DNA of 64,000 bases from a virus: the IMG/VR virus record IMGVR_UViG_3300017925_000001, positions 32,001-96,000 of that record; one strand, given 5' to 3'. A model generated the notes under the pieces. That model ran no database searches. It worked only from the letters and a program-made list of their open reading frames with translations, and was not told where the DNA came from. The position numbers and the translations under genes were made by a program. Within the stretch, counting starts at the first letter, position 1, and each line of letters starts with the position of its first letter. Shown piece after piece: positions 1,314 to 45,278 of this stretch.

Positions 1314-1397
1314 CCCCTAGACTAATTACCTAGGGGCAGCCGTGGGCTCCTTGCTTACCCAAGGGGCCTGCGCAATCTCGGTAAGGAGGAAGTCATG
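1314..1397 (+). promoter_or_regulatory. HEG-leader RNA, copy 1 (divergent): two hairpins plus SD-occluding pseudoknot
   Basis: CCCCTAG/CTAGGGG hairpin; GGGCTCCTTG/CAAGGGGCCT stem; loop CTTACC (1354-59) complementary to GGTAAG (1380-85), which overlaps AAGGAGG. Confidence 0.6.
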
Positions 1398-2009
1398 GGA
1401 AGAGCAGGAAAATACACAGGTCTCATTGGAAAGAGGTTTGGTCTTCTAGAAGTCAGAGTCTTGTCACGTATTGTGCATACAACTCGGTTTGGGAAGCCAA
1501 TAGGATTTACACGATACTACCTTTGTAAATGTGATTGTGGTGGCTCGATAATTGTTAGAGAAACACATCTAACCGAGAAAAGAAAAGCCAACATACAAAA
1601 AAGTTGTGGATGCTTGGTGAAGGAGCTGCACAAGAGTGCTTCGTGGCACACAAAGTCTCGCAAAGAAGGCACAGCTTTTCGTAGATGCTTGGATCAATAC
1701 AAGGCGAATGCAAGGAATCGTGGATTATCTTGGGAGTTGACCGATGATCAGTTCAGAGAGATCACTACATCTCCGTGTCATTATACCGGAGAGGCTCCAT
1801 CCACGGTGAAAAAGTCTAGGTGCGAAGAGTATGTGCATAATGGCATAGATCGCATAGACAATAATAAAGGTTACATAACAGAAAACTGTGTTCCTTGTTG
1901 TGCAATTATCAACCAGATGAAGGCGGATCTCTCATTGAAGAGATTCTTGGAGCTATGCAAAAAAGTTTCAGAGAGGACACAATGTGAGCAGCCCAACAAT
2001 CAACAGTAA
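1395..2009 (+). CDS. Free-standing HNH-type homing endonuclease
   Basis: N-terminal G.RFG.L...CKCDCG...SCGC module; C-terminal CHYTG...NGIDRIDNNKGY..ENCVPCC..IN.MK His-Me-finger-type motif. Confidence 0.85.
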   Translation: MGRAGKYTGLIGKRFGLLEVRVLSRIVHTTRFGKPIGFTRYYLCKCDCGGSIIVRETHLTEKRKANIQKSCGCLVKELHKSASWHTKSRKEGTAFRRCLDQYKANARNRGLSWELTDDQFREITTSPCHYTGEAPSTVKKSRCEEYVHNGIDRIDNNKGYITENCVPCCAIINQMKADLSLKRFLELCKKVSERTQCEQPNNQQ

Positions 2010-2841
2010 TTTATCCAGTAATGGTGACACAAGTCTCCTCAATATTTGTAATTTGGTTAGGGCTTTAATTAACGACAGCCAGGCCGGTGCCCAGGGTATT
2101 CCGGGCGAAGGACAAGTATTCACAGACAACCCTGCTATCTCCCCTTTCGTTCAGCCTTTTTTGAATTCCGCGATACGAAGTTTATATCGTGAACTAAGAA
2201 ACGTTGGGGACCCTGCGCTTGTGTTTGACAACTACATCATCCCGAATATCACACCCATCAACAGTCCGCTGACCGGCCCAGGCAACCCTGATCCGGCACT
2301 GCAAGTCTATATTGGGCAGAGTGGGTACTTTGATGGCACACAGATTTGGCCAGTGATAGCACTGCCCAACAATTTGATGTATCTTGAGCGTGTGTGGGAG
2401 CGCCAGAGCAACACGAACAACACTTTTGTTCCGATGAGTCAGTCGCAGTTTGGTCTTCCCTCTCGGCCTCAACAGCCTTCTTTCATAGAGTGGGAGTGGA
2501 GAAACTATAACCTGAATATGGTGGGCAGCACACAGACCAACGATCTTCGTCTGCGCTTTTGGGGATCTCTACCAACGTTTTATAGCGCTACACTGGACTT
2601 CTCGTCCACGTACGTTCCCATCATAGACTGCACGGACGCATTGGCGTACAAGATTGCAACAATGTATTGTCGTATGCTGGAATCACCCGGTCTGCCTGAT
2701 CTTGTTGCTGAGGCAAAAGAGCAGATGTTCCAACTGAAGAATGCCGTGGTGCGCAGATCTCAGTCCATTGAATATCAACGTATTCCTTACGGAACAAGTG
2801 CCCGCGACACTAACAATAGATTTTTCGCAAACTGGCAGTAA
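1984..2841 (+). CDS. Putative head-to-tail adaptor (P22 gp4/T7 gp11-like)
   Basis: GTG start with GAGG RBS; size, N-terminal helix 'LLNICNLVRALIND' and C-terminal 'DALAYKIA..Y' fit podovirus adaptors; position in the structural arm. Confidence 0.5.
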   Translation: MSSPTINSNLSSNGDTSLLNICNLVRALINDSQAGAQGIPGEGQVFTDNPAISPFVQPFLNSAIRSLYRELRNVGDPALVFDNYIIPNITPINSPLTGPGNPDPALQVYIGQSGYFDGTQIWPVIALPNNLMYLERVWERQSNTNNTFVPMSQSQFGLPSRPQQPSFIEWEWRNYNLNMVGSTQTNDLRLRFWGSLPTFYSATLDFSSTYVPIIDCTDALAYKIATMYCRMLESPGLPDLVAEAKEQMFQLKNAVVRRSQSIEYQRIPYGTSARDTNNRFFANWQ

Positions 2842-2850
2842 GGAGATCAC

Positions 2851-3150
2851 ATGGCTACACTTTTTCGTGCAGATGGTTGGGTGAAGTCGGTTCTGGGACA
2901 AGCAATCGCCGGTGCTCAGATTTTCATATGTGCTCAACCCGCGGATACCGCTTATGTGCCTCCTGTCCCCCTTGCTCAGATCTACTCTGACCCTGCAGGA
3001 TCTTCCCCTATCACCCAGCCTATCATCAGCGATGGCTTCGGGCACTATAATTGGTATGCAGCCGCAGGAGCGTACACAGTTGTAATTGTCACAGGGGGCA
3101 ACGTTCAGGTCGTATATCAAGATCAGGTGCCCATGGGAGCAACCATATAA
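2851..3150 (+). CDS. Small virion protein, paralogue of the N-terminal domain of the next gene
   Basis: R.DGWVK..LG.A..GAQ....QPA...QIYSD..G..PITQP.I.DG.GHY..Y...G.YTV shared with 3150..4394. Confidence 0.7.
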   Translation: MATLFRADGWVKSVLGQAIAGAQIFICAQPADTAYVPPVPLAQIYSDPAGSSPITQPIISDGFGHYNWYAAAGAYTVVIVTGGNVQVVYQDQVPMGATI

Positions 3151-4394: not shown

Positions 4395-4416
4395 ACTCTT
4401 CTAAGGAGCTAGTACA

Positions 4417-7400
4417 GTGAATTTTCTCAAACGACTCAAAAAGCTTTTATTGCCCTTTGTCCTGCTTACGGCAACCCTAGGGTTTTCCCAAGCAGTGCAG
4501 GGAAATGGTGTGCAGCCAGGAGAAGCACAGAATAGCGAAGTGTCTCTTGATACGCTAAACATTCATTTGGATATTCCTTTGGTGAACAAGAAGGGCATTG
4601 GGTTGCCAACAGCACTTTCCTTGAGCTACAACAGTAATCTGTGGCTCGGAGGCACTTTAACTCACCCAGGAGCTTTTAGGCCAAGTTCTGCTGTGACTCC
4701 CGGTTGGAATACTCCTGTTATTATTGGAGGTTCTTTGCAGTATGAAGTCTTTGACTGCGGAGTTCCGGTGCCACCTCCTGGGCAAGGCAATTATAAGGGA
4801 TACAAGTACACAACCTACACAGACGTGTCTGGTGCGGTGCATCCTTTTACAGAACCCGGAGGGGTACTTTCTCCTGCCGAAGGACTGTGCGCATTGTCTT
4901 CAACAGTAGTGTCAGTAGACGGCAGCGGATTCACGTATAATTTAACCACTCCAGGTCTCAATACGAGCACCGTAGTTGACCCTTCGGGAACAGTACTACA
5001 CCCGATAGGTATCACAACAGACTTAAGTAGCAGCATTGTGGATGTGAATGGAAACGCTGTGTCGTACAGTAGCTCTACTGGGGTGCTTACAGACACTTTT
5101 GGAGTAGCCGAAGTCACAGTTACAGGAACTCCTGCTTCTGGAACGGTTACATATACGTATCCTATATCAACAGGAACAGCAAGCGTTAATGTGCTGTATA
5201 CAGGGTACCGATTAGGAACTTATTTTCAATGTGGAGCGAACGCTCCCGATTGGAGCAGTGACCAGACTTTCTACTTGCCTACTAAGGTGAATCTGCCTGA
5301 TGGGTCTAACTACGCCATGACATATGAGAGTCAAGTGTCAGGTACGGTAACAGGACGACTGGCTTCTATAGTATATCCTAATGGGGCAGCAGTTTCTTAC
5401 GCATATTCAGGACCGAACAATGGAGTAAACTGCGGTGATGGATCAACTGCTGGTTTGACAAAAATTGTCTCGGGGGATGCGACATACTCGTTTACAAGAA
5501 ACACATCTACTTGGCTCACTACTACTGAGATTGATGCTGTAGGGATTGCTAACAACACTGCTGTATATACCTTTGTACAACAGCCAGTTGTTATTACCTT
5601 CGGTTCTTTTTTCATGACAAAGGAAGTAGAGAATCAAGGCTCTAGCACGCCTTTGGTTACCAAGACATATTGCTATCAAGGAACAAGTTGTCCGCAAGCT
5701 TCTGTGGCCCCTAGTTTTCCCATCACTCAAACTGATGTGTATACTACGTTAGCCGGGATGTCCACATCTTCTAGGGTATCCAAAACATTCGACGCATATC
5801 AGAATGTGACCAAAACTGCCTTGTATGACTTCGGGGCTTCTACTCCTACCCGTCAAACGGTGTCTGGACCTTTTGGGTATACCTGGAATGGCAATACTTC
5901 TTCCCCTACTTGCACCACTGCAATAGGCAGTGGGGTCAACGACGTTCCATGCCAAGTACAACTTGAGAATGGAGCTGGAAGCCAGCTTAGAAATGCTTAT
6001 TTCAAATATGACACATCTTCGAACCCTGGCAGTTTGTTAGAATCTGCAGTTCTTACAGGCGGATCTTCTTATTTGATCAGCGCTTATACCTACAACACGA
6101 ATGGTGTACCGTCTACAGTAACAGACGCAGCTGGAAACATTACTAATTTTGCATACAGTTCTAGTGTTTGTAAAAGTGGCAGACCAACATCAATAACAGT
6201 ATGGCCCGTGGCAGGAACTACATCCCTTGTCACTTCATTTCTTTATGATTCTGGGTGCAAAGGGGCTGTAACAACAAAGATTACGGACCCAAATTCAAAA
6301 CCTGTCACCTTGGGATACTCTGACCCATTTTGGAGGCTAACTACCTACACAGACGAGCTGGGGAATACAACAAACAATGCATATCCAATGCAGTCTCCGT
6401 ACACAAGCATAGAAACTACTCTAAATTTTTCTTCCTCAACTGTGGATGTGTATCAGCAATCGTACCCAAATTTAGGGAAAGCTTTAGCACAACAGTTGGA
6501 GTCTCCGACATCTTCTAATTGGGACACTGTTTTATCTGCTTACACATGGAATAGCACTGGTATTTTCAACTCTTCTTCGTTGCCTGTTGTAGGTACGAAA
6601 ACTACTGTTCCTACAAACGTTGTTAATACAACTGTAACCCATGATGCCTTAGGTCGTACATTGGTTACAACGGACGGTGGAGGAGGTACAGTTACCACTG
6701 CGTATACTGGACAGGATGTTTTAAACACCCTGGGTCCGGCACCGGCAGGGGAAGTAGTGAAGCAGGTACAGAAGGAGTATGATGGTCTTGGGCAATTGCT
6801 TTCTACTTGCGAAATATCCAATTCTTCTCAGCCTTTGGCTAGTGCCAAAAACTGTGGACAAGTAAATGGCGGGTATACTGGGTATTTAACCAAATATACA
6901 TACAATGCCGAAGGTACCTTGGCATCAGTGGCTAAGTCATCTAGCGCTGCTACGCAGACACATTCATATACGTATGATAAACTTGGCAGAGTTTTAACTG
7001 AGACACTTCCAGAGAGTGGTACTGTTACCAACACTTATGACGGTACTTGTACAGTCCCTACCAGCGGGTGTGGTCAACTTGTTAGCTCCATAGACGCCAA
7101 CGGCAACACCTCTAGTTATGTCTATGATGGGTTAAATAGGGTAACATCCATTACATACAGCGGACCAAACGCAGACGGCTATAATCAATATTTTGTGTAC
7201 GACAAAGCTGTGGTTGATGGCACAGCAATGGTCAATGCAAAAGGAAGGCTGGCCGAAGCGTACACAGCAACTACAGCTACAGCCAGTAAATATGTGGACG
7301 AAGGTTTTGGGTACACAGCTCGTGGGGAAAGCTCAGACGTGTACGAACTCACACCAAATTTGGGTGGGTACAAGCATACTAAGACTTCCTATTATGCCAA

Positions 7401-9285
7401 CGGTGTGCTTAATTCTATCAGCGGCATACCTGGGGGACCTTGGACTTACAGTGTTGACGGCAAAGGCCGCTTATCTGATTCTACTAACGGTTCCTCTACA
7501 ATACTGACAGCAGGAATAACATACAACGCTGCAGACCAACCTCTAGTTGTTACCTATGGTTCTGGGGATTATGATACTTACACCTATGATCCTCTAACCA
7601 CTCGCATGACTGGGTATGCTTTTACTATAGGGTCTACTCCAGCAACTGATTCTGGAACTTTGATATGGAATGCTAATGGAACCCTTAGGTCGTTAAGTAT
7701 AGCAGATGGGGTGAACAGTGGGGGTTCTCAAACGTGCGCCTATGGAGGAGCTACAGCGCCCGGATATGATTCTATAGGCAGACTTTTATCTGTATCATGT
7801 GGTTATGGTGCTCCTGGCTCTAAGACTCTGACCTATTTGTGGGGTCAAAGTTTCAGTTATGACGTTTTTAACAATCTCACCAAGACGGTACCTGCTGCCC
7901 CTTCTGGGTCGTATGTGTATACGCCCACGACTTGGAACCCGGGGTACAGCTCTAGCACCAATAGGCCGAACGGTACTACATCTGATGCCAATGGTAATTT
8001 GTTGACAGACACCTTTCACACCTACACTTGGAACCAGAATAACAAGATAACAGGCGTGACAGACGCTGGTATATCCGTCAAATATGATGCTTTTGGAAAT
8101 GCAGTAGAGTACTATAATGGTACAACGTATACACAGCCCATTTTAAGTCCTATGGGAAACCTTGGTTTGTGGAGCAAAACTGCTCTGAGCAAGTATAGAG
8201 TTCCACTCCCAGGAGGATCAGAACTAGTTTCTGGCACTGATATATGGCATAGGGACTGGTTGGGGTCGGTGCGTCTTGCATCTAGTCTTACCGGAAGAAA
8301 TTCCGTTAAGGATACAGCGTTTGCTCCTTATGGAGAAACTTACGCCACCTTTGGAAGCGCTACAGATGATATAAACTTCACAGGGGATAATCAGGATTTG
8401 GTGGCAGGAATATTTGATACACCTAACAGAGAGTTGAATCCTGATCAAGGTCGTTGGCTTTCACCAGACCCTTCCAGTTCTGGTTGGAATGCGTACGCGT
8501 ATAGTGATAATCCTTTAGGAGAAGTTGATCCAACTGGTCTGAGTATTCTTGATTGGCTCTTTGGTTCAAAAAACTGTTCCTCATCGACAGGTAAAAGCTG
8601 TAGGTGGAATAACGCCTGGAATGGGGATAATCTCCAATATGCAGGTGCGGGAATATGGCTTGCTCCCGGTAGTGGTACTGTGGGAATTAACTGCGGAGTT
8701 ATCACCGGGTGTGGTCATGGCCTTCATCAAATTACTATAAAGTGGTCAGAGACAAATGGGGGTGCTGGAGACAGTTGGGATAGAAGCTTTATTTCTGAAT
8801 CTGTGGGTGAATTTGAGTGGGATTTGGTTCGTGAAGGGATTTTTTTAGGTGCCGCTAGAGGCACTCCCAGCGGTGATGGAGGTTTAGTAAATGGATCAGT
8901 AGCAATGGCAAGGAACTGGCTTAAACAGCCCACAAAATATGGCACTGTTGCAACCGACATAAACGGTAATCATTGGATTCAATTGGCTATAGAAGATATA
9001 GAAAAAGGAAACCAGTGGGCTCTTGAAAGTCAGATGGTAGTAGACGCTTGGGTTAATGGTAACAAAAACCCAGGTTATTACATTGTGAAACTCACATCTG
9101 AAAACTACATGAATAGGTTGGATGCCTTAGATGCAGAGTATAACCTAAACAAATTTGGGAGAGGTATGCTTGAGGCGGCTCACGCTTTTCCAACTACCCC
9201 AAGACTGAGTATGTATGGAAATATGCCAAAAGATCTAAGGCCAAATATGGAAGACATGTTCAAATACAAGAGAGAGGGGGATTAA
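4417..9285 (+). CDS. RHS/YD-repeat polymorphic toxin with N-terminal Sec signal peptide
   Basis: Many YD repeats (YDKLGRV, YDGLNRV, YDSIGRL); core H.DWLGSVR, PYGE, FTG, GRWLSPDP...NP...DPTG; ~247-aa C-terminal extension; signal peptide MNFLKRLKKLLLPFVLLTATLGFSQA. Confidence 0.92.
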   Translation: MNFLKRLKKLLLPFVLLTATLGFSQAVQGNGVQPGEAQNSEVSLDTLNIHLDIPLVNKKGIGLPTALSLSYNSNLWLGGTLTHPGAFRPSSAVTPGWNTPVIIGGSLQYEVFDCGVPVPPPGQGNYKGYKYTTYTDVSGAVHPFTEPGGVLSPAEGLCALSSTVVSVDGSGFTYNLTTPGLNTSTVVDPSGTVLHPIGITTDLSSSIVDVNGNAVSYSSSTGVLTDTFGVAEVTVTGTPASGTVTYTYPISTGTASVNVLYTGYRLGTYFQCGANAPDWSSDQTFYLPTKVNLPDGSNYAMTYESQVSGTVTGRLASIVYPNGAAVSYAYSGPNNGVNCGDGSTAGLTKIVSGDATYSFTRNTSTWLTTTEIDAVGIANNTAVYTFVQQPVVITFGSFFMTKEVENQGSSTPLVTKTYCYQGTSCPQASVAPSFPITQTDVYTTLAGMSTSSRVSKTFDAYQNVTKTALYDFGASTPTRQTVSGPFGYTWNGNTSSPTCTTAIGSGVNDVPCQVQLENGAGSQLRNAYFKYDTSSNPGSLLESAVLTGGSSYLISAYTYNTNGVPSTVTDAAGNITNFAYSSSVCKSGRPTSITVWPVAGTTSLVTSFLYDSGCKGAVTTKITDPNSKPVTLGYSDPFWRLTTYTDELGNTTNNAYPMQSPYTSIETTLNFSSSTVDVYQQSYPNLGKALAQQLESPTSSNWDTVLSAYTWNSTGIFNSSSLPVVGTKTTVPTNVVNTTVTHDALGRTLVTTDGGGGTVTTAYTGQDVLNTLGPAPAGEVVKQVQKEYDGLGQLLSTCEISNSSQPLASAKNCGQVNGGYTGYLTKYTYNAEGTLASVAKSSSAATQTHSYTYDKLGRVLTETLPESGTVTNTYDGTCTVPTSGCGQLVSSIDANGNTSSYVYDGLNRVTSITYSGPNADGYNQYFVYDKAVVDGTAMVNAKGRLAEAYTATTATASKYVDEGFGYTARGESSDVYELTPNLGGYKHTKTSYYANGVLNSISGIPGGPWTYSVDGKGRLSDSTNGSSTILTAGITYNAADQPLVVTYGSGDYDTYTYDPLTTRMTGYAFTIGSTPATDSGTLIWNANGTLRSLSIADGVNSGGSQTCAYGGATAPGYDSIGRLLSVSCGYGAPGSKTLTYLWGQSFSYDVFNNLTKTVPAAPSGSYVYTPTTWNPGYSSSTNRPNGTTSDANGNLLTDTFHTYTWNQNNKITGVTDAGISVKYDAFGNAVEYYNGTTYTQPILSPMGNLGLWSKTALSKYRVPLPGGSELVSGTDIWHRDWLGSVRLASSLTGRNSVKDTAFAPYGETYATFGSATDDINFTGDNQDLVAGIFDTPNRELNPDQGRWLSPDPSSSGWNAYAYSDNPLGEVDPTGLSILDWLFGSKNCSSSTGKSCRWNNAWNGDNLQYAGAGIWLAPGSGTVGINCGVITGCGHGLHQITIKWSETNGGAGDSWDRSFISESVGEFEWDLVREGIFLGAARGTPSGDGGLVNGSVAMARNWLKQPTKYGTVATDINGNHWIQLAIEDIEKGNQWALESQMVVDAWVNGNKNPGYYIVKLTSENYMNRLDALDAEYNLNKFGRGMLEAAHAFPTTPRLSMYGNMPKDLRPNMEDMFKYKREGD

Positions 9286-19660: not shown

Positions 19661-19740
19661 ATCCCAAAGCTTAGCGGCTTTGGTGTAGAGTCGGGAGGTG
19701 CCATTCCACCTCCCCGCTCGACCTGAATGGAGGAACTATG
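19661..19740 (+). promoter_or_regulatory. HEG-leader RNA, copy 2 (precedes glycosidase-like gene)
   Basis: ATC-CCAAAGC-ttagcg-GCTTTGG; TAGAG; GGGAGGTG/CACCTCCC; loop CCATTC (19701-06) pairs GAATGG (19725-30), which overlaps GGAGG. Confidence 0.8.
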
Positions 19741-20733
19741 ATTAACAGAAATTTTGTGCGTTTAGTTTTGGCTGAAGGTGGAACAATCAAACCGTTGATG
19801 ATTTCTTCTGTTGACTCTGGTGGGCTTGGGCTCTGTAACCCGTCAGTGTTTGTTGATCACGGTGAAATTTGGTTGATACTCAGAAATGTCAGTTACACGA
19901 TATACCACTGCGAAAATGAGAAGAGATTCAATAGTCGGTATGGTCCGCTGAGTTATCTCAATCCAGAGCATGACCAGCATTTGCGGACTACGAATTTTCT
20001 TTGTAAGTTGACACCAAGTCTCGAAATAGAACGATACTGGAAAATCGACACTAGCCATCTCGACAAAGAACCGCTCTGGGAGTTTACGGGTTTGGAAGAC
20101 GCTCGTCTCGTACGTTGGGATGGGCATCTGTACGGTATCGGAGTTCGGCGTGATACAACAACCAACGGTCAGGGACGGATGGAGTTTTCGGAACTCGAAT
20201 TGGTCAACGACACTGTAAAGGAAATCGGGCGATATAGAATTGAACATCCTACGGCTCCTGAATGGTATTGTGAAAAGAATTGGATGCCAGTGTTGGACAT
20301 GCCTTACCATTTCATCCAGTGGACAAATCCTGCGGTATTGGTTAAAGCTAACCTTACGACTTTGAAGTCCTATCGGGCGATTGAGGTCAATGAGTCTGGC
20401 AAGATTGAAGGCATGCCATTTCTCCGTGGGGGTTCCCAAGTAATCCCTTGGCATAACTATTACATCTGTATTGTCCACGACTGTGACCTGACCAAGAATC
20501 TCATAGGACAAAAAGATGCTACTTACATGCATCGGTTTGTGGTCTATGACCGGAATTGGAATATAGTTAGGATTGGCGACCAGTTCTCTTTCATGGATGG
20601 GGAAATCGAATTCTGTTGTGGACTCGCAGAATATGAGAAGGACTTCTTGATGACGTTCGGTTTTCAAGATAATAGTGCTTGGATTTTGAAAATTCCATCA
20701 TCTATAATTCCCAAATTGATCGGAGTAGCATGA
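19738..20733 (+). CDS. Five-bladed beta-propeller glycosidase-like protein (GH130/DUF377-like)
   Basis: NPS, GLEDARL, EKNW.P, LRGGS, Y.HRF, IEF..GL and FG..D blade motifs. Confidence 0.75.
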   Translation: MINRNFVRLVLAEGGTIKPLMISSVDSGGLGLCNPSVFVDHGEIWLILRNVSYTIYHCENEKRFNSRYGPLSYLNPEHDQHLRTTNFLCKLTPSLEIERYWKIDTSHLDKEPLWEFTGLEDARLVRWDGHLYGIGVRRDTTTNGQGRMEFSELELVNDTVKEIGRYRIEHPTAPEWYCEKNWMPVLDMPYHFIQWTNPAVLVKANLTTLKSYRAIEVNESGKIEGMPFLRGGSQVIPWHNYYICIVHDCDLTKNLIGQKDATYMHRFVVYDRNWNIVRIGDQFSFMDGEIEFCCGLAEYEKDFLMTFGFQDNSAWILKIPSSIIPKLIGVA

Positions 20734-23450: not shown

Positions 23451-23530
23451 ATCTCAGGTCCTCGAAACCTGGGCTAGAGCTGGAAGGAGCCTAACTCTCC
23501 TTCCTTGCTCGATCTGATTTAAGAGCTGAA
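23451..23530 (+). promoter_or_regulatory. HEG-leader RNA, copy 3 (decayed, no HEG downstream)
   Basis: ATC; CTCAGGT/ACCTGGG; C-TAGAG; GGAAGGAG/CTCCTTCC; GCTC-GATCT; loop CCTAACT no longer matches downstream TTTAAG. Confidence 0.65.
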
Positions 23531-23561
23531 TATCTAGAAAAGTGGAAGGAAGGGTAGCGAT

Positions 23562-26500
23562 ATCGGACATAACCTTAAACAACTGGGTAAGTAAGTTGCC
23601 CCCTCAGTCAGTAATGATTGAGCGCAGAACCAAGAGAATTCGGTGAAACGCCCTCTGGGCCAATACCGAGCCGAGCCGCTAATGCGGAAGGTGTAACGAC
23701 TATCCCGCAAGGGAGTAGGGAACAGTGTTCCCGAAGTACTTGGGGTCCTGAAAAGGATCATGATATAGTCTGGTCTTACTGGCAACAGTAAGAGTTCGAA
23801 TGGAAACGATTCGAGCGTAACATATAAACGACAGCTTCTTTGGATTGTTTTGGCGGTCTTATTACCATGGCTCAAGCCCGTGATTTGCCCGAAGGTGCGA
23901 GTCCGAGATGTTTCGACGTTGACTTTACAGTCGGTAGCGTAGCCACTCGTCCCGGCTTAGTATCCGTGTATACCTACGCAAATACTTGGGCCATCACCTC
24001 GTACTCCCTTGGTAGTGGTGGTCTTGCAACATTTAACTACACCGGTATCCCCGAGATCACCGAGAACGAAGGATTGATCCTCAGCGGATTCCAAGGACCT
24101 CTCAGTGTTTTGAACGGAACCACGATATATGCCGAAGCTGTAACCATGAACACTTTCATGGCACAAGTAGTTGGACCCTTGGGCACCTTTGTCAACCTAA
24201 GCGCCAGCGCAGTTTCCCTAGTGGGCTCCTTTGTAGGGCCTAACCAAGGGGTTGCCTCTAGCACTTCTTGGAGTAGTCCGCAGAACGTGTTCAGTCCCAC
24301 GGGGTACGCCTCGGCAAGCGGAGGACAGACATACAGCCCTGCGATTGTCCCTGGATCAACGTCTAGCACTTCATCTACAGCTTGGACTAACCCAAGCTAT
24401 GCTTTGTCCACAAGCCCAAGTACGTACGCTACTGTGAGTTCTCTTGGTGCAGGAGTGTCCGCACCCCTCTATGCGAGTGCTTTGGGCTTGTCTGTACCTC
24501 CCAATGCAACAATCACAGGGGTGAAGGTCGCATTCTCTGCTAGAGCTACAGAGGCCAGCGGTAATCCATACGTCATTGCTCAGCTTGTGCTGGGAGGGTC
24601 GCAAAGTTACTTGGGAAGCGCAGTAAATATTCCTATCGCAGCGAATGGCGCGAGTTTGGCTCCATACAATTATGGTTCCTCAACGTTTCAATGGGGTACC
24701 ACTCTGACGCCCGCGATTGTCAATGATCCTACTTTCGGGTTTGACCTAAGCGCTTTCACGGGAACTCTGTCGAACAACTTTCATTATTATTTGAACAGCC
24801 TCGTGGTCGCGGTTTACTACACCACATCGGCTACAACAGAGATTCTGACGGCCAACAGTTTCGGATTCTCGATCTCGTTGTCTTCTGGAGTCTCAGGGTT
24901 CAACACCACTTTCAAAGCGTATTCCAGCGCATCTACTTCGGCAGTGTTTCAACTACTTGAGAACGGAGTTCCTCAGGGCACTCCTAAGACTCTTCCTCTC
25001 ACCACTACGCCCACGGTGTATAATCTGGGCGGGCCTGAGGACCCTTGGGGCTATGTCTGGTCAGCAGCCAACGTCAACTCTCCGCAGTTTGGAATTCAGA
25101 TCACAGCCGAAGGAGTCGGCACTACGTACGTAGGGGACTTGGATGTCACCACATTTGTCACCCCGGCGCTATCGAATTTCAACTGGATTGGGAGCTATGA
25201 GCAGACGAATGCTGCGCTTACCACTCTGGCTCTTGATGCTGATGGCAACATGTGGGCTGAGAACGTTCTCAATAACCCTGGGGTACTATCGCTCTCATTG
25301 AGCGGTTTGCTTCCAGATTCGTACGCGGTTGGAGCTACGATGAATGATTCCGAGTTCATCATGTTCTCGGATCTGAATATCGGCACCGACCGTCCTCGTC
25401 AGCTCTACAACGATGGAAACTGGTATCCGGTGACCCAAGTGGGCCCTGGTAGTGCTCCGACATTCTTGGCTTCCACAGGTGGGATTACTAATACCCTGCA
25501 CATCAGCGCTTACACAGCAGTCGCAGGCACACCCACTATTCCGTCATCAACGACCTTCACAATATCACCTGTGGCAGCTGTAGCTCCGGTTGTTGGATCA
25601 CTTTATGTACTGAGCGGATTCACTGGGCCGGACGCAGTATTGAATGGTCAGGTGGTCACGGTTTTGACAGGTGCAACCACTGCTAGCTTTTCAGCAGATG
25701 TATCGGTTACTGCTCCAGGCAACACCGCTGTCGTAGCTCTTGCTACGCTCACCTTCGCATATCCCATAGAGAGCATCAAACAATTGGGGTACATTACGAG
25801 CGGTCTGAGCGGTGGGGTGCTTTGGTTCCTTCTGAGTACAGGACCTAACCAGTCTGCTCAGGGCAGTGTAGTGACAGTGTACTACGCATATGCATCGCCT
25901 TCACTAGCGCCAAATTTGAACCTTCAGAATGCTTGGAATGCGTCTGTGGCTGGAACTGGTCCTCCAGTTTACGTGCAGATCAATAATGCAGCCAATGTCA
26001 ATGGTTACAATTTTGATGGGATCTGGCAAGTCACAGGCATAGGGTACAACCATTTCTTGGGGTATACCTCACAGGGGTATTACTTCACTTTCCAGTACAC
26101 TGAGTCTGGTTTTGCCAACGGCACCAACAATGCCACGGCTTATCTGACACAAGCCACGTTGACCTTAGCTTCCCCTGGTGTCGTTGGGATCACGAATAAT
26201 ACACCCATCACTATTACAGGGGTCACAGGAAGTTCTCCAGATCAGGTAGGGTACAACAATACGTGGGTTATCACCAACGCTGTCAATACAGGTCAGTATA
26301 ACATCACTGAATCCCAGTATAATGGCGCTGGGGTTGCGACCTTCACATACAACTTCGCCTCTTTAACTAATAGTCAAGTTCCTGTTGTAGGTAATACCAT
26401 TCAGATCATAGGCGTCACCAACAATGCCGCCATGAACGGTATCTTTGCAATTTCGGCTGTGAATGCTGGCGCTTCTACATTCAGCGTGCTAGTGACTATC

Positions 26501-28859: not shown

Positions 28860-28942
28860 ATCTCAAGGCTTAGCGGCCTTGGGCTAGAGTTGGGAAGTGC
28901 TATGAACACTTCCCTTCTCGCCTTTTCATAGGAGGAATTATG
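28860..28942 (+). promoter_or_regulatory. HEG-leader RNA, copy 4
   Basis: ATC; CTCAAGGC-ttagcg-GCCTTGGG; C-TAGAG; GGGAAGTG/CACTTCCC; loop CTATGAA (28900-06) pairs TTCATAG (28925-31), ending on the first G of GGAGG. Confidence 0.85.
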
Positions 28943-29608
28943 CCAACAGGAATTTATGAAAGAAAACCAACAATACCTAGAATGTCTAACTGTCACCCTG
29001 ATAGAAAACATTTTGGAAAAGGAATGTGCAACCAGTGTTATCATAAGGCTTACCACGTACAGCATAAGCACTCGTTTGTAGATGAGTTTGGTATTTCAAT
29101 ACCAGAGGGCTTCTATACCTACCTCTGGTTCAGGGCAGATAGCACCCCATATTATGTGGGAAAAGGCAACGGAAAAAGAGCCTACGTAAATCATGGACAT
29201 TCGTTTCACAGACCTGTGAGTAGGGCAAGGATTTTTGTGCAATATTGGGAGTCTGAGGAAAAGGCGCTTGAGATTGAGGCTTGGTACATTGCTTTTTATG
29301 GGCGCATAGACAAAGGCACAGGTTGTCTCAGAAACCTAACAGATGGAGGAGAAAATCCTCCAGGCAATAAAGGTGTAAAGTTTTCAGAAGAGCACAAACG
29401 AAAAATAAGTGAAGCACAGAAAGGCCCTAAGGGACATTGGTTTGGAACAAAGAGGCCTTTTGTTTCTAGAGGTAAAGGTCGAGTACAAAACCCTGAATGG
29501 ATTGCTAAAAGGGTAGCCAGTACAAAAGCAACTCGTGAGTGTAAGAAGAAAGGAGACCCTACGGTATGCAAGGCAGAACTAGCGCGCTCGATGGCGGGCA
29601 AGAGCTAA
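28940..29608 (+). CDS. GIY-YIG-like homing endonuclease with NUMOD3
   Basis: FYTYLW.R.D.TPYYVGKG...RA; YGRID.GTG.LRNLTDGGE; SEEHKRKISEA; paralogue of 20730..21467. Confidence 0.85.
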   Translation: MPTGIYERKPTIPRMSNCHPDRKHFGKGMCNQCYHKAYHVQHKHSFVDEFGISIPEGFYTYLWFRADSTPYYVGKGNGKRAYVNHGHSFHRPVSRARIFVQYWESEEKALEIEAWYIAFYGRIDKGTGCLRNLTDGGENPPGNKGVKFSEEHKRKISEAQKGPKGHWFGTKRPFVSRGKGRVQNPEWIAKRVASTKATRECKKKGDPTVCKAELARSMAGKS

Positions 29609-36500: not shown

Positions 36501-37680
36501 TGAAGCTCTGGAAGATGCAGTCAATCACATTACCAATGATGCAGGTAAGCATCTTCCCCCAGTCAGTGGTGGGTCTGGTGCAGCAGACAAAGCTGCTAAG
36601 GTAGCCAAAGAGCTGCCCCCTCTTCCTGAATTAGCTGAGAAACATTTGACTCCCGAGGAGAAGTTGGGAGTGAGCAAGTCGGAAGCTCAGCAAACCAAGT
36701 TTATTGAGCGTATGGAGCAGATCCCAGAAGTTCATGAATACAGGGATATAGCTTTGGTTGGTGAAGGTGCTAGAAAATGGTACCAGAGAAGTTCCCAAGC
36801 TTTCGACGCTATGGCTGAAGAAGCTCCTGAATACTTCAAAGATGGTGATAAGGAAAAATTCATCAATCTATTAGCTGCCAGTTCACCTCGGCAGTCTGTA
36901 GCGATGAATCTACGTGAGACATTACGTACATGGACAGCCTATGTTGATGCAAATCGACCCACAGGGCAACCTTTGGAAGATTTGTTGAAGGAGAATTTGA
37001 CTTCTGCAACATCCAAGGTACCCAATGCACTGAAAGCCATCAATGGCGAAGACATGTGGCCGGACATCACGAAGAATAAAGCGTTCAAGGTACCAAGTTT
37101 TGCAAGAAACTTGAGAGGATATCTCGATTCTGTTACCAACGATGGGTGGATGTCTCTGTTTGCTGGGCTTGATCCCAGGGAGATCTCCAGTGCTCACTCA
37201 TATCACCCTCTGTCTGTTGCTACGCGTGCTGCCGCTGAAGAACTTGGCTGGAGCCCTGCGGAAGCGCAAGCGTCAATTTGGAGTTTCACACAAGCTTTAA
37301 CTGAGCGTGGTGAAGAATTACCTGAAGAAGTTCGTAAGCATTCTGAGGACTTTGTTGACCTCTTAGCTCACGACCCACAAGTACGTGGTTTACTAGCAGA
37401 TCTAGGAGTCTCACATGCCAACCTCGACGCAAAGCTCGCAGCCATCGGAGAAAAGCCAGAAGTCTCCGGTAGAACTACGCCAACTACTTCTCGCAGTATT
37501 GAGCGGCTTAAAGAACGCATCGAAACAGCAAGAGGTAAAGGAACCATCCCACCTCCAAAGTCAGCCCAAGGAGAATTTGGGTTCCGAGAAGCTCCAGCAG
37601 GAGAATCTCGGTCCAGACTCAAGGATGAGGATGTCGAATTCAACACTGCAAAGATGAACGCTGTTCGAATGAAACGATAG
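33595..37680 (+). CDS. Large multidomain ejection protein with C-terminal glycosylase-like domain
   Basis: 1361 aa; WY...LLAASSPRQSV..NL...K...F..NL...VTND.WM...QA.IW motif series near the C-terminus. Confidence 0.65.
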   Translation: MPTVEELQGDKDFMAATPADQQRYLSSVDPEFKAAHPEDQSAYLAHVTNAPTGEQPKQGALDTANQQYEGPGVVNALGRVATMLPNMAKQAYHAFTDPRTEEENKLDKTPVVGNAALAAKRMLLDPSQQAYEKTEKMARDREQYFAEHGQEDPHPIQAKMAEAGGKAMSMIPMVGPWGMSLGERAGKGDVSGALTEAGSLALAPEIAHEAMPGGALPGAAEAGARPLPTADAAVRMGARGATKVQPMLPTAIGAVAGETVGHPYWGAIAGRIMLPQAWLGPLLEKGRTFGLDANEAGIVHLGERLQQAEAAAAEAKTAYDAHKPGREQGIPAPKEVLDAYEKTQTALQTAQAHFQAAQEDYLAKRGRPPVSMELSPEQQAAQAERMTPPPTNEKLGARQEKLMADIEAKAPPYAEGTEPLPRMGEKQPGMTEGKPEVPAEVKPEVAPIMTAGKPERAPSMAGLKVTPEGKVEDTTAIQTATKEALGAEKPARMVPATEGTAVRPGEVPPMRGEYTPAPAPAPEVKAAPVPEAKIPAKEPGLMGPEKELAHEGRSPEDLAKVDRAVAELPNQDLQRLGTRFGLDESKYDFSKREATREGGSKHPIEREKFSKDTQEKLPEALKNHIVDAAKAFDEKNPDVFSPQDLSSSGNAARARAILTEAMKRYTDELAAKGQAGGAPADIRTQVGAHNANGGSTFHPEKGDLKGQPYFAVGGEPEFKNPDLKMTVKGGELTAEQLKEFSERPAVKEALAKHPDASIGTWHDTGEDNTVVELVKTPAARDEAIAMGVKNGEKAIYDLKEGKEIPTGGDQSKMSAEDRAKVQEELAKEGQSGGAPGVVTKEAKLPTGDDLIKKYGESSGDPAQTTFILKDGRGVANTGVDHDVMLGGKATDVNPRREQFIQDGNIRVRPRSGGKAGREVAISIPDDGITAEQMKYLQKMSPQLRSGVVMMEGSKAGSKYKVLEYGAATNEALEDAVNHITNDAGKHLPPVSGGSGAADKAAKVAKELPPLPELAEKHLTPEEKLGVSKSEAQQTKFIERMEQIPEVHEYRDIALVGEGARKWYQRSSQAFDAMAEEAPEYFKDGDKEKFINLLAASSPRQSVAMNLRETLRTWTAYVDANRPTGQPLEDLLKENLTSATSKVPNALKAINGEDMWPDITKNKAFKVPSFARNLRGYLDSVTNDGWMSLFAGLDPREISSAHSYHPLSVATRAAAEELGWSPAEAQASIWSFTQALTERGEELPEEVRKHSEDFVDLLAHDPQVRGLLADLGVSHANLDAKLAAIGEKPEVSGRTTPTTSRSIERLKERIETARGKGTIPPPKSAQGEFGFREAPAGESRSRLKDEDVEFNTAKMNAVRMKR

Positions 37681-37681: not shown

Positions 37682-37765
37682 ATCCCTCGGGGTTGCTCCC
37701 GAGGATAGAGTGGGGAGGTGCTCATTCCACCTCCCTGCTCGACCTGAATGAGAGGAAAACATATG
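37682..37765 (+). promoter_or_regulatory. HEG-leader RNA, copy 5
   Basis: ATC-CCTCGGGG-ttgc-TCCCGAGG; TAGAG; GGGAGGTG/CACCTCCC; CTC-GACCT; loop CTCATTC (37721-27) pairs GAATGAG (37746-52), which overlaps GAGG. Confidence 0.85.
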
Positions 37766-38263
37766 CCAGCAAAAGGACAGTTTCAAACACACTGTAAACG
37801 TGGCCACAAAATATCAGGAGACAATCTGCATATTGTAAAAAGTACAGGTCAAAGAATATGCAGACGATGCCGAAGAGAAAGAGTCAGCGTCTATAGGAGT
37901 TCTGAAAAAGGAAAAAAAGCATCACGTAGTACAGCTAACAACAATAGAGAAAAGATAAAGGTAGAAGTTCTCACGCACTATGGAAAAGGTGGGAAGCTTA
38001 TGTGTTGTTGGTCTGGTTGCAAAATTTGTGACTTAGACATGCTAAGCTTAGACCATGTGAAAAATGATGGTCAAGAACACGTTAGTGAAACAGGTATAAG
38101 GTATCTAGGCATACGTCTATATAGATGGGCAAGGAGAAATAATTTTCCAAAAACTTTGCAAACCCTATGCTTTAACCATCAGCACAAAAAAGAAATTGTC
38201 AGGCGCAAAAAGAATAGGATCGACAATCGTGAAAGAGATGCCAAGCGCATCGGAAGGAATTAA
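37763..38263 (+). CDS. HNH-type homing endonuclease
   Basis: THCKRGH...R.CR.C zinc finger; LSLDHV.NDG...LQTLCFNH. Confidence 0.8.
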   Translation: MPAKGQFQTHCKRGHKISGDNLHIVKSTGQRICRRCRRERVSVYRSSEKGKKASRSTANNNREKIKVEVLTHYGKGGKLMCCWSGCKICDLDMLSLDHVKNDGQEHVSETGIRYLGIRLYRWARRNNFPKTLQTLCFNHQHKKEIVRRKKNRIDNRERDAKRIGRN

Positions 38264-39242: not shown

Positions 39243-39246
39243 TAAT

Positions 39247-42037: not shown

Positions 42038-42046
42038 GAGAAAGAA

Positions 42047-42412: not shown

Positions 42413-42452
42413 GTTTATGAAGTAAATCAGTGACTCAGAAAGGTCAAATTTA

Positions 42453-43220: not shown

Positions 43221-43238
43221 CAAAAGGAGACTCAGTAA

Positions 43239-43412: not shown

Positions 43413-43540
43413 TGGAATATATTGAAGCAGCTTTTTCCCTCCTCATCGTCCTTGCAGTTGTGGGGACAATCATCCTCAGTCTCTATGGTGCGATCTCGGC
43501 GCTCGTCTGGCTTACGCGCTACATTTGGTGGAAGCGATGA
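43412..43540 (+). CDS. Small membrane protein (42 aa)
   Basis: Stop/start overlaps on both sides; hydrophobic. Confidence 0.5.
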   Translation: MEYIEAAFSLLIVLAVVGTIILSLYGAISALVWLTRYIWWKR

Positions 43541-44247
43541 TTATTGGGCCAGTGATTCACTCGGTGATCCTAGGCTACGGACATCGCGCTCGTTCTGGAA
43601 AAGACACCGCAGCCTCGATTATTATCAAAGAACGCGGAGCAGAGTTTGACATACGCCGATATAGTTTTGCAAGTGAATTGAAGGCTGAGGTCAACCACAA
43701 CGCTATGAAGGCTGGCGGCATGAAGAATTTGTTCGCTGACGGTCTACGCTTGGAAGGTTGCGGGTATATGCAGGAGAATGAAGAACTCCTGCGACTACCA
43801 GAATGGGTACAAATGGACCCCAGTCCCGATATGAGCGATCCCGAATGCCCATATGGCAAGCAACGCTCGCTCTTGCAATTTTGGGGAACAAACCTTAGAC
43901 GATCAGTGAACGAAAACTACTGGCTCAACAAAGTGAAGCAGCGTATTGCCGATGAAAAACCACAGATCGCCCTGATCACAGACTTGCGTTTTTTAAACGA
44001 AGTGAATTTTATACTCACATACGGGGAAGTGATTCGCATCGACCGTCCTGGTCTCCCGCCTCTCAGTGAGGCGCACGAATCAGAGCTAGCTTTGGCCAAT
44101 TATGATGGTTGGTCCGACATTATCAAGAACAATGGCACGCTGAACGAGTTCAAGGAAAAGGTTCTCTTCAGCTTTGACATGTTGCTTTCAGCAGTTCCGC
44201 AAGAGCACCGAACAGAGGAACCGAAAGGTACGGTGGTGAAGGTGTAA
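43537..44247 (+). CDS. Deoxynucleoside monophosphate kinase (T4 gp1-like)
   Basis: G..ARSGKDT, FA..LK, R.LLQ.WGT, ITD.RF.NE, H.SE, I.NNGT. Confidence 0.9.
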   Translation: MIIGPVIHSVILGYGHRARSGKDTAASIIIKERGAEFDIRRYSFASELKAEVNHNAMKAGGMKNLFADGLRLEGCGYMQENEELLRLPEWVQMDPSPDMSDPECPYGKQRSLLQFWGTNLRRSVNENYWLNKVKQRIADEKPQIALITDLRFLNEVNFILTYGEVIRIDRPGLPPLSEAHESELALANYDGWSDIIKNNGTLNEFKEKVLFSFDMLLSAVPQEHRTEEPKGTVVKV

Positions 44248-44279
44248 TGCTCTGAACTGAGCACCTTCAAGGACTCACT

Positions 44280-45194
44280 ATGAAAAAGTATTTGCTACCG
44301 ATCCTGCTGTGGGCCCTCCTCGGATTGGCCTCGGCAACCGTCACACCAGCACAGAAAACATTGCAGCACAAGGCTACGCACACGATTGTCATGTCGAATG
44401 AGAAGGCACATGATGGAGCTGGTTGCTCCGCAACGGCAATCTCTGAACATGTCCTGCTCACTGCTGAGCACTGCAATGTCCCAGGCAGTGTGCTTTACCT
44501 TGATCAGAACAACAGACCTTACCAGCACCCGCTGGAGATCTCAGAGCGGTACCTGGATCATCAGGATCATATGCTCCTAGTTCTCCCAGGCGTCTCGTTC
44601 AAGAACTTCGTGGATTATGGCTCCGCTGCTCCTTTGAAGCAGGGTGACCATTACTATCTGTGGGGCAACCCAGGCTTGATTCGAGACCAGTACCGCGAGG
44701 GCTACGTCACCGGGTCAATTGTTGATCCGATCTATGAGATGGAGATTGATGCAGTCAGTTCCTTTCTCATGTTGAATGGACCTGTGATTGGTGGAGATTC
44801 AGGCAGCGCAATATTCAGCGCCGAAGATGGCCACCTTGCAGGAGTCCTGACGTACGGGATGGAGTACGGTATGTTCGCAGGCGTCTATCCGCTCGCGTTC
44901 ACAGCTGATCAGATCGCGCAGGCCGAGGGCGTAGGTTCATTCGTCTACTTGCCCGACACTCGCCCGGTCGTCAATGTCAATGCTACTGCAGCTCACTCTG
45001 TAGTCGATCATAGCGAAGCTCCTCTGTGGGCTCTGGTGTGGTTGTTCGCAGTCTGCATCTTGTGGTACACGCTGGGTGGCGTGTTCAAGACACTAGCCAA
45101 GGGCATACGCGGGGCAGCAGGGCCGGTCTGGAAGGCAATGAAGTACGTGGGGCGGCTGTTCAAAACTGCATACCAAACTTTAAAGAAAATATAA
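44280..45194 (+). CDS. Exported trypsin-like serine protease with C-terminal membrane anchor
   Basis: Signal peptide; LTAEHC (His), D, GDSGS (Ser); C-terminal TM plus amphipathic helix. Confidence 0.85.
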   Translation: MKKYLLPILLWALLGLASATVTPAQKTLQHKATHTIVMSNEKAHDGAGCSATAISEHVLLTAEHCNVPGSVLYLDQNNRPYQHPLEISERYLDHQDHMLLVLPGVSFKNFVDYGSAAPLKQGDHYYLWGNPGLIRDQYREGYVTGSIVDPIYEMEIDAVSSFLMLNGPVIGGDSGSAIFSAEDGHLAGVLTYGMEYGMFAGVYPLAFTADQIAQAEGVGSFVYLPDTRPVVNVNATAAHSVVDHSEAPLWALVWLFAVCILWYTLGGVFKTLAKGIRGAAGPVWKAMKYVGRLFKTAYQTLKKI

Positions 45195-45198
45195 TTAC

Positions 45199-45278
45199 AT
45201 CTCCCGGGGTTGCTCCTGGGGGCTAGGGCCCTAGCGTGACTCCATCGCGTTGGGGCCTGTCCTATGGAGGGACACATG
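45199..45278 (+). promoter_or_regulatory. HEG-leader RNA, copy 6
   Basis: ATC; CTCCCGGGG-ttgc-TCCTGGGGG; C-TA; 14-bp stem 45226-39/45245-58; CTCCAT (45240-45) pairs ATGGAG (45264-69), which is the SD. Confidence 0.8.

Follow-up and report, generated by a model that had tools for sequence, protein, structure and literature searches.

A covarying RNA leader with two hairpins and a pseudoknot precedes unrelated homing endonuclease genes in peat phages and may attenuate their translation

Large phages commonly carry free-standing homing endonucleases. Studies of how the genes for these (HEGs) are tolerated within essential operons of high expression cover only a few cases of the T4 family, each with its own hairpin. 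The stretch of 64,000 nt analysed here (the window), part of a 109.7-kb peat phage genome, raises the question whether endonuclease genes of different kinds can share one RNA module, and what that module does. Direct reading of the sequence located the five intact copies and the decayed copy of a leader that an earlier note had described, and confirmed that the five intact loop/target pairs all differ and are all exactly complementary:

1314-1397, + strand: copy 1, a divergent subtype (direct reading and RNAfold); P1 1314-1320/1330-1336, P2 1340-1353/1360-1372, loop CTTACC 1354-1359, linker 1373-1379, target GGTAAG 1380-1385, ATG 1395
19661-19740, + strand: copy 2 (RNAfold and covariance model, E=1.4e-23); P1 19664-19671/19676-19683, P2 19688-19700/19707-19719, loop CCATTC 19701-19706, linker GACCT 19720-19724, target GAATGG 19725-19730, SD GGAGG 19729-19733, ATG 19738
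23451-23530, + strand: decayed 'solo' leader; P1 and P2 kept, loop CCTAACT
28860-28942, + strand: copy 3 (RNAfold and covariance model, E=2e-26); loop CTATGAA 28900-28906, target TTCATAG 28925-28931, SD AGGAGG 28930-28935, ATG 28940
37682-37765, + strand: copy 4 (RNAfold and covariance model, E=3.5e-24); loop CTCATTC 37721-37727, target GAATGAG 37746-37752, ATG 37763
45199-45278, + strand: copy 5 (RNAfold and covariance model, E=3.7e-19); loop CTCCAT 45240-45245, target ATGGAG 45264-45269, ATG 45276

The true starts behind copies 4 and 5 are corrected here to ATG 37763 and ATG 45276. The count of five intact copies holds within the window; the covariance model found four more outside it, which brings the whole genome to nine, and copy 1 shares CTGCGCAATCT with the genome copy at 29338. 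The decayed copy has no loop complement, SD, ATG or endonuclease gene at its site and lies directly before exon 1 of an intron-containing tail gene. A homologue of this tail gene on contig L046 has an intact leader at the equivalent site (L046:8360), which therefore precedes a tail gene and not a nuclease gene.

The leader is an RNA of about 80 bases, composed in order of AT(C), hairpin P1, YAG, hairpin P2, a linker, a segment complementary to the P2 loop, the Shine-Dalgarno sequence (SD) and ATG. P1 has 7-8 bp and P2 has 12-13 bp with an internal mismatch, the P2 loop has 6-7 nt, and the linker (5-7 nt, consensus GACCU) is followed by a complementary segment of 6-7 nt. RNAfold predicted both hairpins in 6/6 window copies, with z-scores of -2.3 to -4.4. 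The stem covariation that the earlier note had seen by eye is strong in both P1 and P2: among 69 distinct sequences, 94.6% of the pairing cells are paired, against 70.6% after shuffling and 39-50% when partners were slid, and 21 of 23 pairs show compensatory changes, values matched by none of 500 shuffles. G.U pairs are common in both hairpins and covariance-model matches on the reverse strand are weaker by at least 20 orders of magnitude, so the fold is that of the sense RNA. Conservation also extends to unpaired positions, namely the YAG junction, the GACCU linker and the first C of the loop, and persists there in copies outside the selection by the retrieval pattern; about a dozen unpaired leader bases are moderately conserved.

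The pseudoknot columns were left out of the structure given to the covariance model. In 67 of 77 unique copies, the P2 loop has at least six contiguous Watson-Crick matches to bases just 5' of or overlapping the SD. These 67 copies carry 46 distinct loop sequences, and only 1.4% of non-cognate loop/tail pairings reach complementarity of at least 6 nt. Double changes occur in all three of the pseudoknot pairs that keep a fixed register, and the leader thus has covariation-backed pairing of a hairpin loop with a downstream single strand, as in an H-type pseudoknot. A model-free scan then asked for three things in order: a hairpin with 7 bp or more, a complement to its loop of 6 nt or more within 26 nt, and a start codon that follows this complement after 5-12 nt. 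On the + strand of the genome it returned all nine intact copies and one other match; among them was copy 1, which was weak in the first covariance model (E=2.2) yet was recovered here. The same scan had no matches on the - strand of the genome and 1-4 in shuffled or reversed controls. The arrangement of loop, target and start codon is far beyond chance.

How much of the ribosome-binding site (RBS) this pairing covers is a narrower matter. In 49 of 63 copies, 7-9 nt separate the end of the target from the start codon, and in 55 of 63 copies the target and the SD overlap by 1-5 nt. The earlier claim that the leader pairs onto the RBS was overstated: on average 42% of the SD bases lie inside the pairing, and in the remaining 8/63 copies the overlap is zero and the target merely abuts the SD. 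As a rule the pairing takes up no more than 1-4 nt at the 5' side of the SD; the 3' half is unpaired in most copies and the start codon is left free, which makes the occlusion partial. Taken alone, the loop/target duplex is modest (mean -6.8 kcal/mol). A linker of 5-6 nt leaves little steric room to span a P2 of 12-13 bp in a classical H-type pseudoknot, and the fit is uncertain; the pseudoknot may hence exclude the lower P2 stem, which would point to a switch more than to a constitutive block.

The leader recurs well beyond this genome. A related 103.6-kb phage has eight copies found with the covariance model, and 106 further matches lie on about 55 other IMG/VR contigs; the hosts of these uncultured peat phages are probably Acidobacteriota. 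The distance from the upstream stop codon to the start of the leader is 1-7 nt in 49 of 74 copies, and for most copies it is 1-4 nt. Sigma-70-like promoters are found upstream of only a few copies and never inside leaders. Three copies lacking P1 (genome 13218, L044:5827 and G001rc ~25351) lie directly behind such promoters and not behind ORFs.

The genes behind the window copies, together with a leaderless gene for comparison, are as follows:

1395-2009, + strand: HNH/EndoVII-like endonuclease gene behind copy 1 (PHROG 1035, 3322 and 3118, E 1e-17 to 7e-16)
19738-20733, + strand: 331-aa ORF that opens the copy-2 cassette; no family in Pfam or PHROG
20730-21467, + strand: GIY-YIG-type endonuclease gene, MTFYTYTYLRADGTPYYIGKG... 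(PHROG 15526, 10829 and 314)
28940-29608, + strand: endonuclease gene behind copy 3 (Pfam NUMOD3; PHROG 15526 and 314)
37763-38263, + strand: HNH endonuclease gene behind copy 4, MPAKGQFQTHCKRGH... (PHROG 1492 and 826)
45276-45989, + strand: HNH endonuclease gene behind copy 5 (Pfam HNH and HNH_5; 17 PHROG HNH families)
48541-49047, - strand: NUMOD4-HNH endonuclease gene, leaderless comparison (Pfam NUMOD4)

The product of the gene behind copy 3 combines an N-terminal zinc-finger, a GIY-YIG domain of the FYTYLW type and NUMOD3. Four of the five intact window copies had been said to precede HEGs; those four do, but copy 2 is no exception, since it too heads a cassette that ends in a GIY-YIG gene. 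The ATG of that gene overlaps the stop codon of the 331-aa ORF (ATGA), whose product is kin to viral hypothetical proteins, with a weak GH130-like lead. Nuclease cassettes follow 9/9 intact copies of this genome, and the leader precedes nearly every HEG of its late-gene (+) arm. The enrichment extends to the other contigs, where tabulated downstream genes are nearly all nucleases of the GIY-YIG, HNH or EndoVII type. Among 74 downstream ORFs, Pfam assigned Endonuclease_7 (22), GIY-YIG (18), NUMOD3 (18), HNH (8), HNH_3 (3) and MUG113 (1), and PHROG assigned endonuclease VII (27) and homing endonuclease (24). The leader is common to unrelated nuclease families (GIY-YIG, HNH, EndoVII-type and T5orf172), of which the note had named GIY-YIG and HNH types in the window. 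It was also right that the NUMOD4-HNH gene has no leader: neither the covariance model nor the model-free scan has a match there on the - strand. One of the leaderless endonuclease genes has its own TTGACA-17-TATAAT promoter, and the other four are on the - arm. Copies without an endonuclease gene have lost the pseudoknot in all but one case.

The leader forms the 5' (left) end of the inserted cassettes, as had been suspected: the homology of foreign contigs stops exactly at the ATC. At copy 3, foreign contigs match 28860-28900 only, beginning exactly at this ATC. Homology also breaks inside the leader, and in one variant contig the end of the decayed copy is fused to copy 2. The two related phages (109.7 and 103.6 kb) carry different endonuclease genes at the same intergenic sites, and different endonuclease families are found behind leaders with identical loop and target. 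At an empty site in the related phage, the flanking genes are separate and have an ATGA overlap. The genes downstream begin right at the stop codon of the endonuclease gene or overlap it. We rejected the possibility that the leader is part of a group I intron carrying the endonuclease gene, as there is no room for a 3' intron half; the window has a single intron match, a group I intron at 23579-23792.

No Rfam 15 family reached its gathering threshold for the leader, in agreement with the earlier impression that the motif was not a known one. The families covered include preQ1, SAM-II/V, pistol, twister, hatchet, hammerhead and HDV-like RNAs. A search of the whole window at the gathering threshold and at E<=1 returned that group I intron only, and two leaders searched alone at E<=10 yielded nothing above noise, with no score over 18 bits where the thresholds are 35-90. 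The closest parallels are RBS-sequestering structures, which limit the translation of I-TevI, I-TevII, I-TevIII and mobE and, by implication, segB (PMC3014915). Like the leader, these T4-family hairpins (including that of mobE of Aeh1) are cis-acting mRNA structures at the HEG initiation region and are exposed to read-through from upstream, and their presumed purpose of limiting nuclease synthesis is the same (PMC3014915). They are, however, simple and gene-specific and enclose the SD and/or the start codon, whereas the leader is one conserved family of two hairpins and a pseudoknot with more than 100 copies before unrelated nuclease families, in which the loop of an upstream hairpin pairs only with the 5' edge of the SD. 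In T4, a late promoter that lies within the hairpin provides relief; the leader has no evident internal promoter. A hairpin of the T4 type was rejected for the leader itself, in which RNAfold places SD and AUG outside P1 and P2 and the partner is the upstream loop.

In topology, the leader resembles the preQ1-I/II, SAM-II and SAM-V riboswitches, in which the loop of a hairpin pairs with a 3' tail continuing into the SD. Those riboswitches have invariant pseudoknot bases that contact the ligand, whereas the paired bases of the leader vary freely; its P2 is far longer, P1 is extra, no ligand is indicated and there is no Rfam match. The gene 32 pseudoknot of T4 and T2 is likewise a pseudoknot in a phage mRNA 5' leader that controls translation, a role that is putative for the leader described here. 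Placed 67 nt ahead of the start, it nucleates the cooperative binding of gp32 along an AU-rich stretch; unlike the leader, it leaves the SD untouched, serves one gene only and is bound by the product of that gene. Fremin et al. (2023) numbered 8,495 candidate structured RNAs from IMG/VR intergenic regions (PMC10690425), which share with the leader their source, covariation and a position directly upstream of genes with known domains; an endonuclease-associated pseudoknot leader is absent from the main text of that paper. With these candidates compared through the text of the paper, the leader is a new RNA family of a regulatory kind that is already known.

What does the leader do? The occurrence before nearly all late-arm HEGs and the more than 100 recurrences make low nuclease translation the most likely outcome, and on balance we favour the reading that the leader is a portable cis-acting translation attenuator and insulator carried along with endonuclease cassettes. 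The note's portable regulatory module is borne out as a covarying RNA of two hairpins and a pseudoknot with a set position, nuclease association and portability; its regulatory part is our interpretation. The leader would be the 5' untranslated region of free-standing homing-endonuclease cassettes placed between co-directional genes of the + arm (structural and late genes), and the endonuclease is most likely read from the mRNA of the upstream gene, because most cassettes have no room for a promoter. The P2 loop (6-7 nt) would pair with a stretch whose last base is 7-9 nt ahead of the start codon, burying the first 1-4 SD bases in a helix that may stack directly against the rest of the SD. The resulting drop in 30S loading would allow a trickle of nuclease from an abundant late transcript. 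As P1 starts 1-4 nt after the upstream stop codon, it may act as a buffer that absorbs unwinding by terminating ribosomes and blocks re-initiation or scanning, so that P2 and the pseudoknot would stay folded.

Attenuation of this kind could be timed and not merely damped, if a protein of phage or host, a small molecule or temperature acted in trans to stabilise or open the pseudoknot, with the lower P2 stem and the pseudoknot as two states. The conserved unpaired YAG, GACCU and first loop C, which simple occlusion leaves unexplained, could then mark a binding site or catalytic core, the short linker would make the two pairings hard to combine, and the endonuclease SDs are strong (5-8 nt) where a weak SD would be enough if low expression were the sole aim. 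We nonetheless regard such a switch as unlikely: the other genes of this phage have equally strong SDs, no candidate regulator was found, the lower P2 stem covaries and hence forms, and the free variation of loop and target (46 variants) means that the pseudoknot helix holds no conserved pocket. Cleavage by RNase III or RNase E (in P2 and pseudoknot or at the P1 flank), or self-cleavage, that splits the endonuclease mRNA from the structural mRNA or protects the upstream mRNA 3' end would fit the position of the leader exactly at gene boundaries of long operons and the dozen or so moderately conserved unpaired bases; P2 stacked on the pseudoknot (about 20 bp) would also come near the length of two helical turns that RNase III sites usually have. 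We find this quite unlikely, as no family of self-cleaving ribozymes or processing sites matched even at E<=10, and a processing site would have no need of covarying pairing that is anchored to the SD and keeps a fixed distance to the start codon.

RNA structure immediately 5' of an SD can be tolerated and can even be beneficial, and a fold that shields the pre-SD region from the coding sequence while presenting the rest of the SD and the AUG, as a translational enhancer or standby platform, would agree with the unpaired start codon and 3' half of the SD in most copies. It is very unlikely all the same, with the first 1-4 SD bases paired away in 55/63 copies and with the selfish nucleases of other phages, as far as tested, being repressed and not boosted (PMC3014915). 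The swaps of endonuclease genes at shared sites and behind identical leaders, the homology breaks at the ATC and inside the leader, and the fusion of copy 2 to the decayed copy would also suit a mainly DNA-level module, a homology patch or cassette end that aids insertion or swapping of endonuclease genes and whose RNA fold is incidental. Such a patch should conserve its sequence, but the stems and pseudoknot change by compensatory substitution, G.U pairs work on one strand only, and the position relative to SD and ATG is fixed; a DNA role is compatible with an RNA function and cannot replace it, which makes this reading scarcely probable. A composite, in which a bistable or factor-responsive switch (or processing ribozyme) is at the same time a recombination module that swaps unrelated endonuclease genes between intergenic sites, strikes us as improbable to the same degree as the switch.

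A single conserved RNA module, whose covariation is unusually clear, is used by nucleases of at least four superfamily types and is found at more than 100 sites in these phages. For annotation, the leader is a marker of endonuclease cassettes and of their remnants, the 'solo' leaders. It also offers a compact system for studying pseudoknot control of initiation, because natural compensatory variants already exist, and it lets one trace recombination between the regulatory and coding modules of selfish elements. If the composite of switch and recombination module were true, the leader would be a standard 'expression plug' for selfish nucleases, a regulatory and mobility adaptor common to the homing endonuclease community of soil phages.

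A conserved fold of the sense-strand RNA, with a covarying pairing between a hairpin loop and the edge of the Shine-Dalgarno (SD) sequence, follows a stop codon and precedes a nuclease gene in this phage, and it moves as the 5' part of an endonuclease cassette. Each intact window copy of this leader reads, from 5' to 3', AT(C), hairpin P1 (7-8 bp), a short junction with YAG at its end, hairpin P2 (G-rich, 12-13 bp, with an internal mismatch), a linker of 5-7 nt (consensus GACCU), a target segment of 6-7 nt exactly complementary to the P2 loop, and the SD with ATG. An earlier note had described such a layout at six places, and direct reading bore it out almost to the letter; its five loop/target pairs were confirmed as listed, all different and exactly complementary. 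RNAfold predicted P1 and P2 in all window copies, with z-scores of -2.3 to -4.4.

Leader copies in the window, with loop/target pairs and downstream genes
1314-1397, + strand: copy 1, CTTACC/GGTAAG, before an HNH/EndoVII-like nuclease
19661-19740, + strand: copy 2, CCATTC/GAATGG, before a 331-aa ORF of unknown family and then a GIY-YIG gene whose ATG overlaps the ORF stop
23451-23530, + strand: decayed copy, P1 and P2 kept; loop/target match, SD and ATG gone
28860-28942, + strand: copy 3, CTATGAA/TTCATAG, before a zinc-finger, GIY-YIG and NUMOD3 protein
37682-37765, + strand: copy 4, CTCATTC/GAATGAG, before an HNH nuclease
45199-45278, + strand: copy 5, CTCCAT/ATGGAG, before an HNH nuclease

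Because MAFFT alignments placed copies 1 and 5 wrongly, structure statistics were computed on a model-based alignment of 69 distinct sequences with 500 shuffles. Standard pairs filled 94.6% of cells, versus 70.6% in column shuffles and 39-50% with slid partners, and no shuffle reached the observed pairing values, figures that are favoured for P1 and P2, to which the alignment was fitted. Compensatory double changes occurred in 21 of 23 pairs, bearing out the stem covariation noted earlier. The pseudoknot columns covary too, though they lie outside the model's structure. Since 6-nt and 7-nt loops occupy different registers, a fixed-column count fails for most loop positions; three pairs are countable and the remainder were tested per sequence, by comparing the loop with the 20 nt after P2 in 77 unique copies whose P2 was located automatically. 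At least six contiguous Watson-Crick matches were present in 67 of these (36 with seven, 31 with six), which together carry 46 distinct loop sequences, versus 1.4% of non-cognate loop/tail combinations. A genome scan blind to the family recovered all nine intact copies and one other site on the + strand and none on the - strand (controls, 1-4 matches). G.U pairs occur often in both stems, P1 and P2, and model scores collapse on the reverse strand, so the fold belongs to the sense RNA. The isolated loop/target duplex has a modest mean energy of -6.8 kcal/mol.

The window covers bases 32001-96000 of an IMG/VR virus record that is 109,724 bp long and has direct terminal repeats. R1, a covariance model based on four copies, was run on this genome and added four leaders, at genome positions 13218, 17794, 23288, and 29338, all upstream of the window and each with its own exact pair (CCTCATA/TATGAGG, CCTCAAT/ATTGAGG, CGCGAA/TTCGCG, and CCTAGAA/TTCTAGG). 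The earlier count of five intact copies stands for the window and is too low for the whole genome, which has nine. With a second model (R2), we found eight leaders in G001, a related phage of 103.6 kb that shares 64% identity in the primase/helicase; again, each leader has its own loop/target pair. Searches with R2 yielded no leader in two more distant IMG/VR relatives and no significant match in Tunturi_3 and Tunturi_4, the Tunturiibacter phages that are its nearest relatives in culture, and blastn of one leader against 50,697 deposited phage genomes gave no match. A P1-derived pattern retrieved 71 loci from IMG/VR, in which R2 made 106 matches at E<=1e-3, spread over about 55 of them. Across 596 Gb of prokaryotic genomes, the P1 pattern hit 81 loci including one genuine copy, on a 1.26-kb contig (L116) binned with a Terracidiphilus MAG; the remaining loci were rejected as chance pattern matches. 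Six contigs of one alphaproteobacterial MAG, E30__bin229 (L128, L143, L145, L176, L180, and L190), carry the P1 pattern without matching the covariance model and may hold an unrelated repeat that shares the same short motif. Given its absence from distant and cultured relatives and the single copy in the prokaryotic genomes, the leader looks specific to one group of uncultured peat/wetland phages; this phage itself is present in several peat metagenome runs. Judging by the Tunturi relatives together with the one MAG match, the hosts of this group are probably Acidobacteriota. The family is broader than the covariance model detects, as the model missed a divergent, promoter-proximal copy without P1 on the reverse strand of G001 (~25220-25351; loop CCCTAAA, target TTTAGGG) that precedes an EndoVII-type gene.

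The genes behind the leaders are predominantly nucleases of different families. Of the four extra genome copies, one precedes a T5orf172/MUG113 protein, two precede GIY-YIG proteins, and the copy at 29338 precedes an EndoVII-type protein. Four of the five intact window copies had been placed directly before homing endonuclease genes, which holds; copy 2, left out of that statement, also heads a nuclease cassette and is no exception, because its GIY-YIG gene overlaps the stop of the 331-aa ORF. This ORF (19738-20733) is one of a family of hypothetical viral proteins, has a weak GH130-like lead, and may be cargo carried with the endonuclease. Tabulating 74 downstream ORFs from all genomes bore out the expected enrichment in homing endonucleases: Pfam assigned Endonuclease_7 (22), GIY-YIG (18), NUMOD3 (18), HNH (8), HNH_3 (3), and MUG113 (1), PHROG assigned endonuclease VII (27) and homing endonuclease (24), and sequence clustering and motifs left only a handful that are not recognisable as nucleases. 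A leader is missing from five endonuclease genes of this genome: one carries a consensus sigma-70-like promoter of its own, and four lie on the opposite arm, among them the NUMOD4-HNH gene at 48541-49047, as had been noted before.

The start of the leader falls 1-7 nt, mostly 1-4 nt, after the stop codon of the upstream ORF in 49 of 74 copies, and the distance from the end of the target to the start codon is 7-9 nt in 49 of 63. The claim that the loop pairs onto the ribosome-binding site holds insofar as, in 55 of 63 copies, 1-5 nt of the target fall within the best SD match; the overlap is partial, covering a mean of 42% of SD bases, and in eight copies the target merely abuts the SD. SD strength showed no useful difference between leader-bearing and other genes. 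An insertion boundary at the ATC, proposed earlier as a check, is seen at copy 3, where similarity to other phages' contigs sharing the leader ends exactly there. One site is empty in the related phage G001, with its two flanking genes overlapping by ATGA; in this genome, a leader, an endonuclease gene, and a new SD lie between them. Reads of four peat/wetland DNA runs revealed no clean endonuclease-less allele, and a candidate joint from the DNA runs (28937>29614) was discarded because one of its sides spans just 47 nt and the letters in between are undefined. In the peat runs, summed contig depth has 10- to 30-fold spikes at 23670-24336 (group I intron region) and 37010-37676 (the last ~670 bases of a 1361-aa gene), which suggests that these stretches are common to many other, more abundant phages.

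Leaders and nucleases are modular. At the same intergenic sites, this phage and G001 carry different endonuclease genes, each with a leader in front, and an identical loop and target can occur before different nuclease families (CTCCAA before four different N-termini). Three copies without P1 all lie directly behind sigma-70-like promoters, not behind an ORF. Leaders without an endonuclease gene lack the pseudoknot or are truncated within P2, with one exception, an intact leader on another phage contig (L046:8360-8443, CTTCTAT/ATAGAAG) that directly precedes a tail-gene homologue and is accompanied by a second SD. The decayed window copy occupies the same site, and both look like footprints of endonuclease loss beside an intron-bearing gene. 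The 1672-aa tail gene in the window (23542-23840) has a short first exon and an intron at 23589-23830; the join of 23588 to 23831 reads ...IGHNLKQLG followed by TASLDCFGGLIT, and the joined product matches the N-termini of the G001 and L046 homologues (MGHNLKALGSASLD). Where the homologues have their ATG, the aligned codon of this genome is ATC (23562-23564), and the gene's start may therefore be non-canonical or damaged. Also among the tail genes is a 1622-aa ORF (4417-9285) with a weak PHROG match.

The loop/target pairing, with its helix stacked on the rest of the SD, would reduce 30S binding, so that little nuclease would be made from read-through late transcripts. Against ribosomes that terminate 1-4 nt upstream, P1 would guard both P2 and the pseudoknot; it may also block re-initiation. 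This repression reading has weak points: the predicted pairing occludes the SD only partially, the linker is short for spanning P2, and some conserved unpaired bases are not accounted for. Together with the modest duplex energy, they keep alive a regulated switch or operator and a processing or stability element; an enhancer is less likely.

A purely DNA-level role leaves the compensatory, G.U-tolerant evolution unexplained; a secondary role as a recombination patch fits the site sharing, the homology breaks, and the same loop/target before different families. A phage RNA-polymerase promoter or intrinsic terminator was rejected because the stems covary rather than conserve sequence and no U-tract follows them, as was part of a group I intron, since the window's sole intron match spans 23579-23792 and the endonuclease genes leave no space behind them for a 3' intron half.

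Repression of this kind has precedent in the RBS-sequestering hairpins of I-TevI, I-TevII, I-TevIII, mobE, and segB (PMC3014915), so the regulatory principle is already known. Rfam 15 contained no family that matches the leader, either in the whole window (gathering threshold, E<=1) or in two leaders alone (E<=10), in keeping with the novelty claimed earlier, and a full-text literature search found no account of such a leader. The motif is unmentioned in the main text of Fremin et al. 2023 (PMC10690425), who catalogued 8,495 candidate structured RNAs from IMG/VR; the leader may be listed anonymously among them. With that catalogue compared by text, the RNA family and its pseudoknot architecture are new as far as can be told, and so are its abundance and the fact that several nuclease superfamilies share it.
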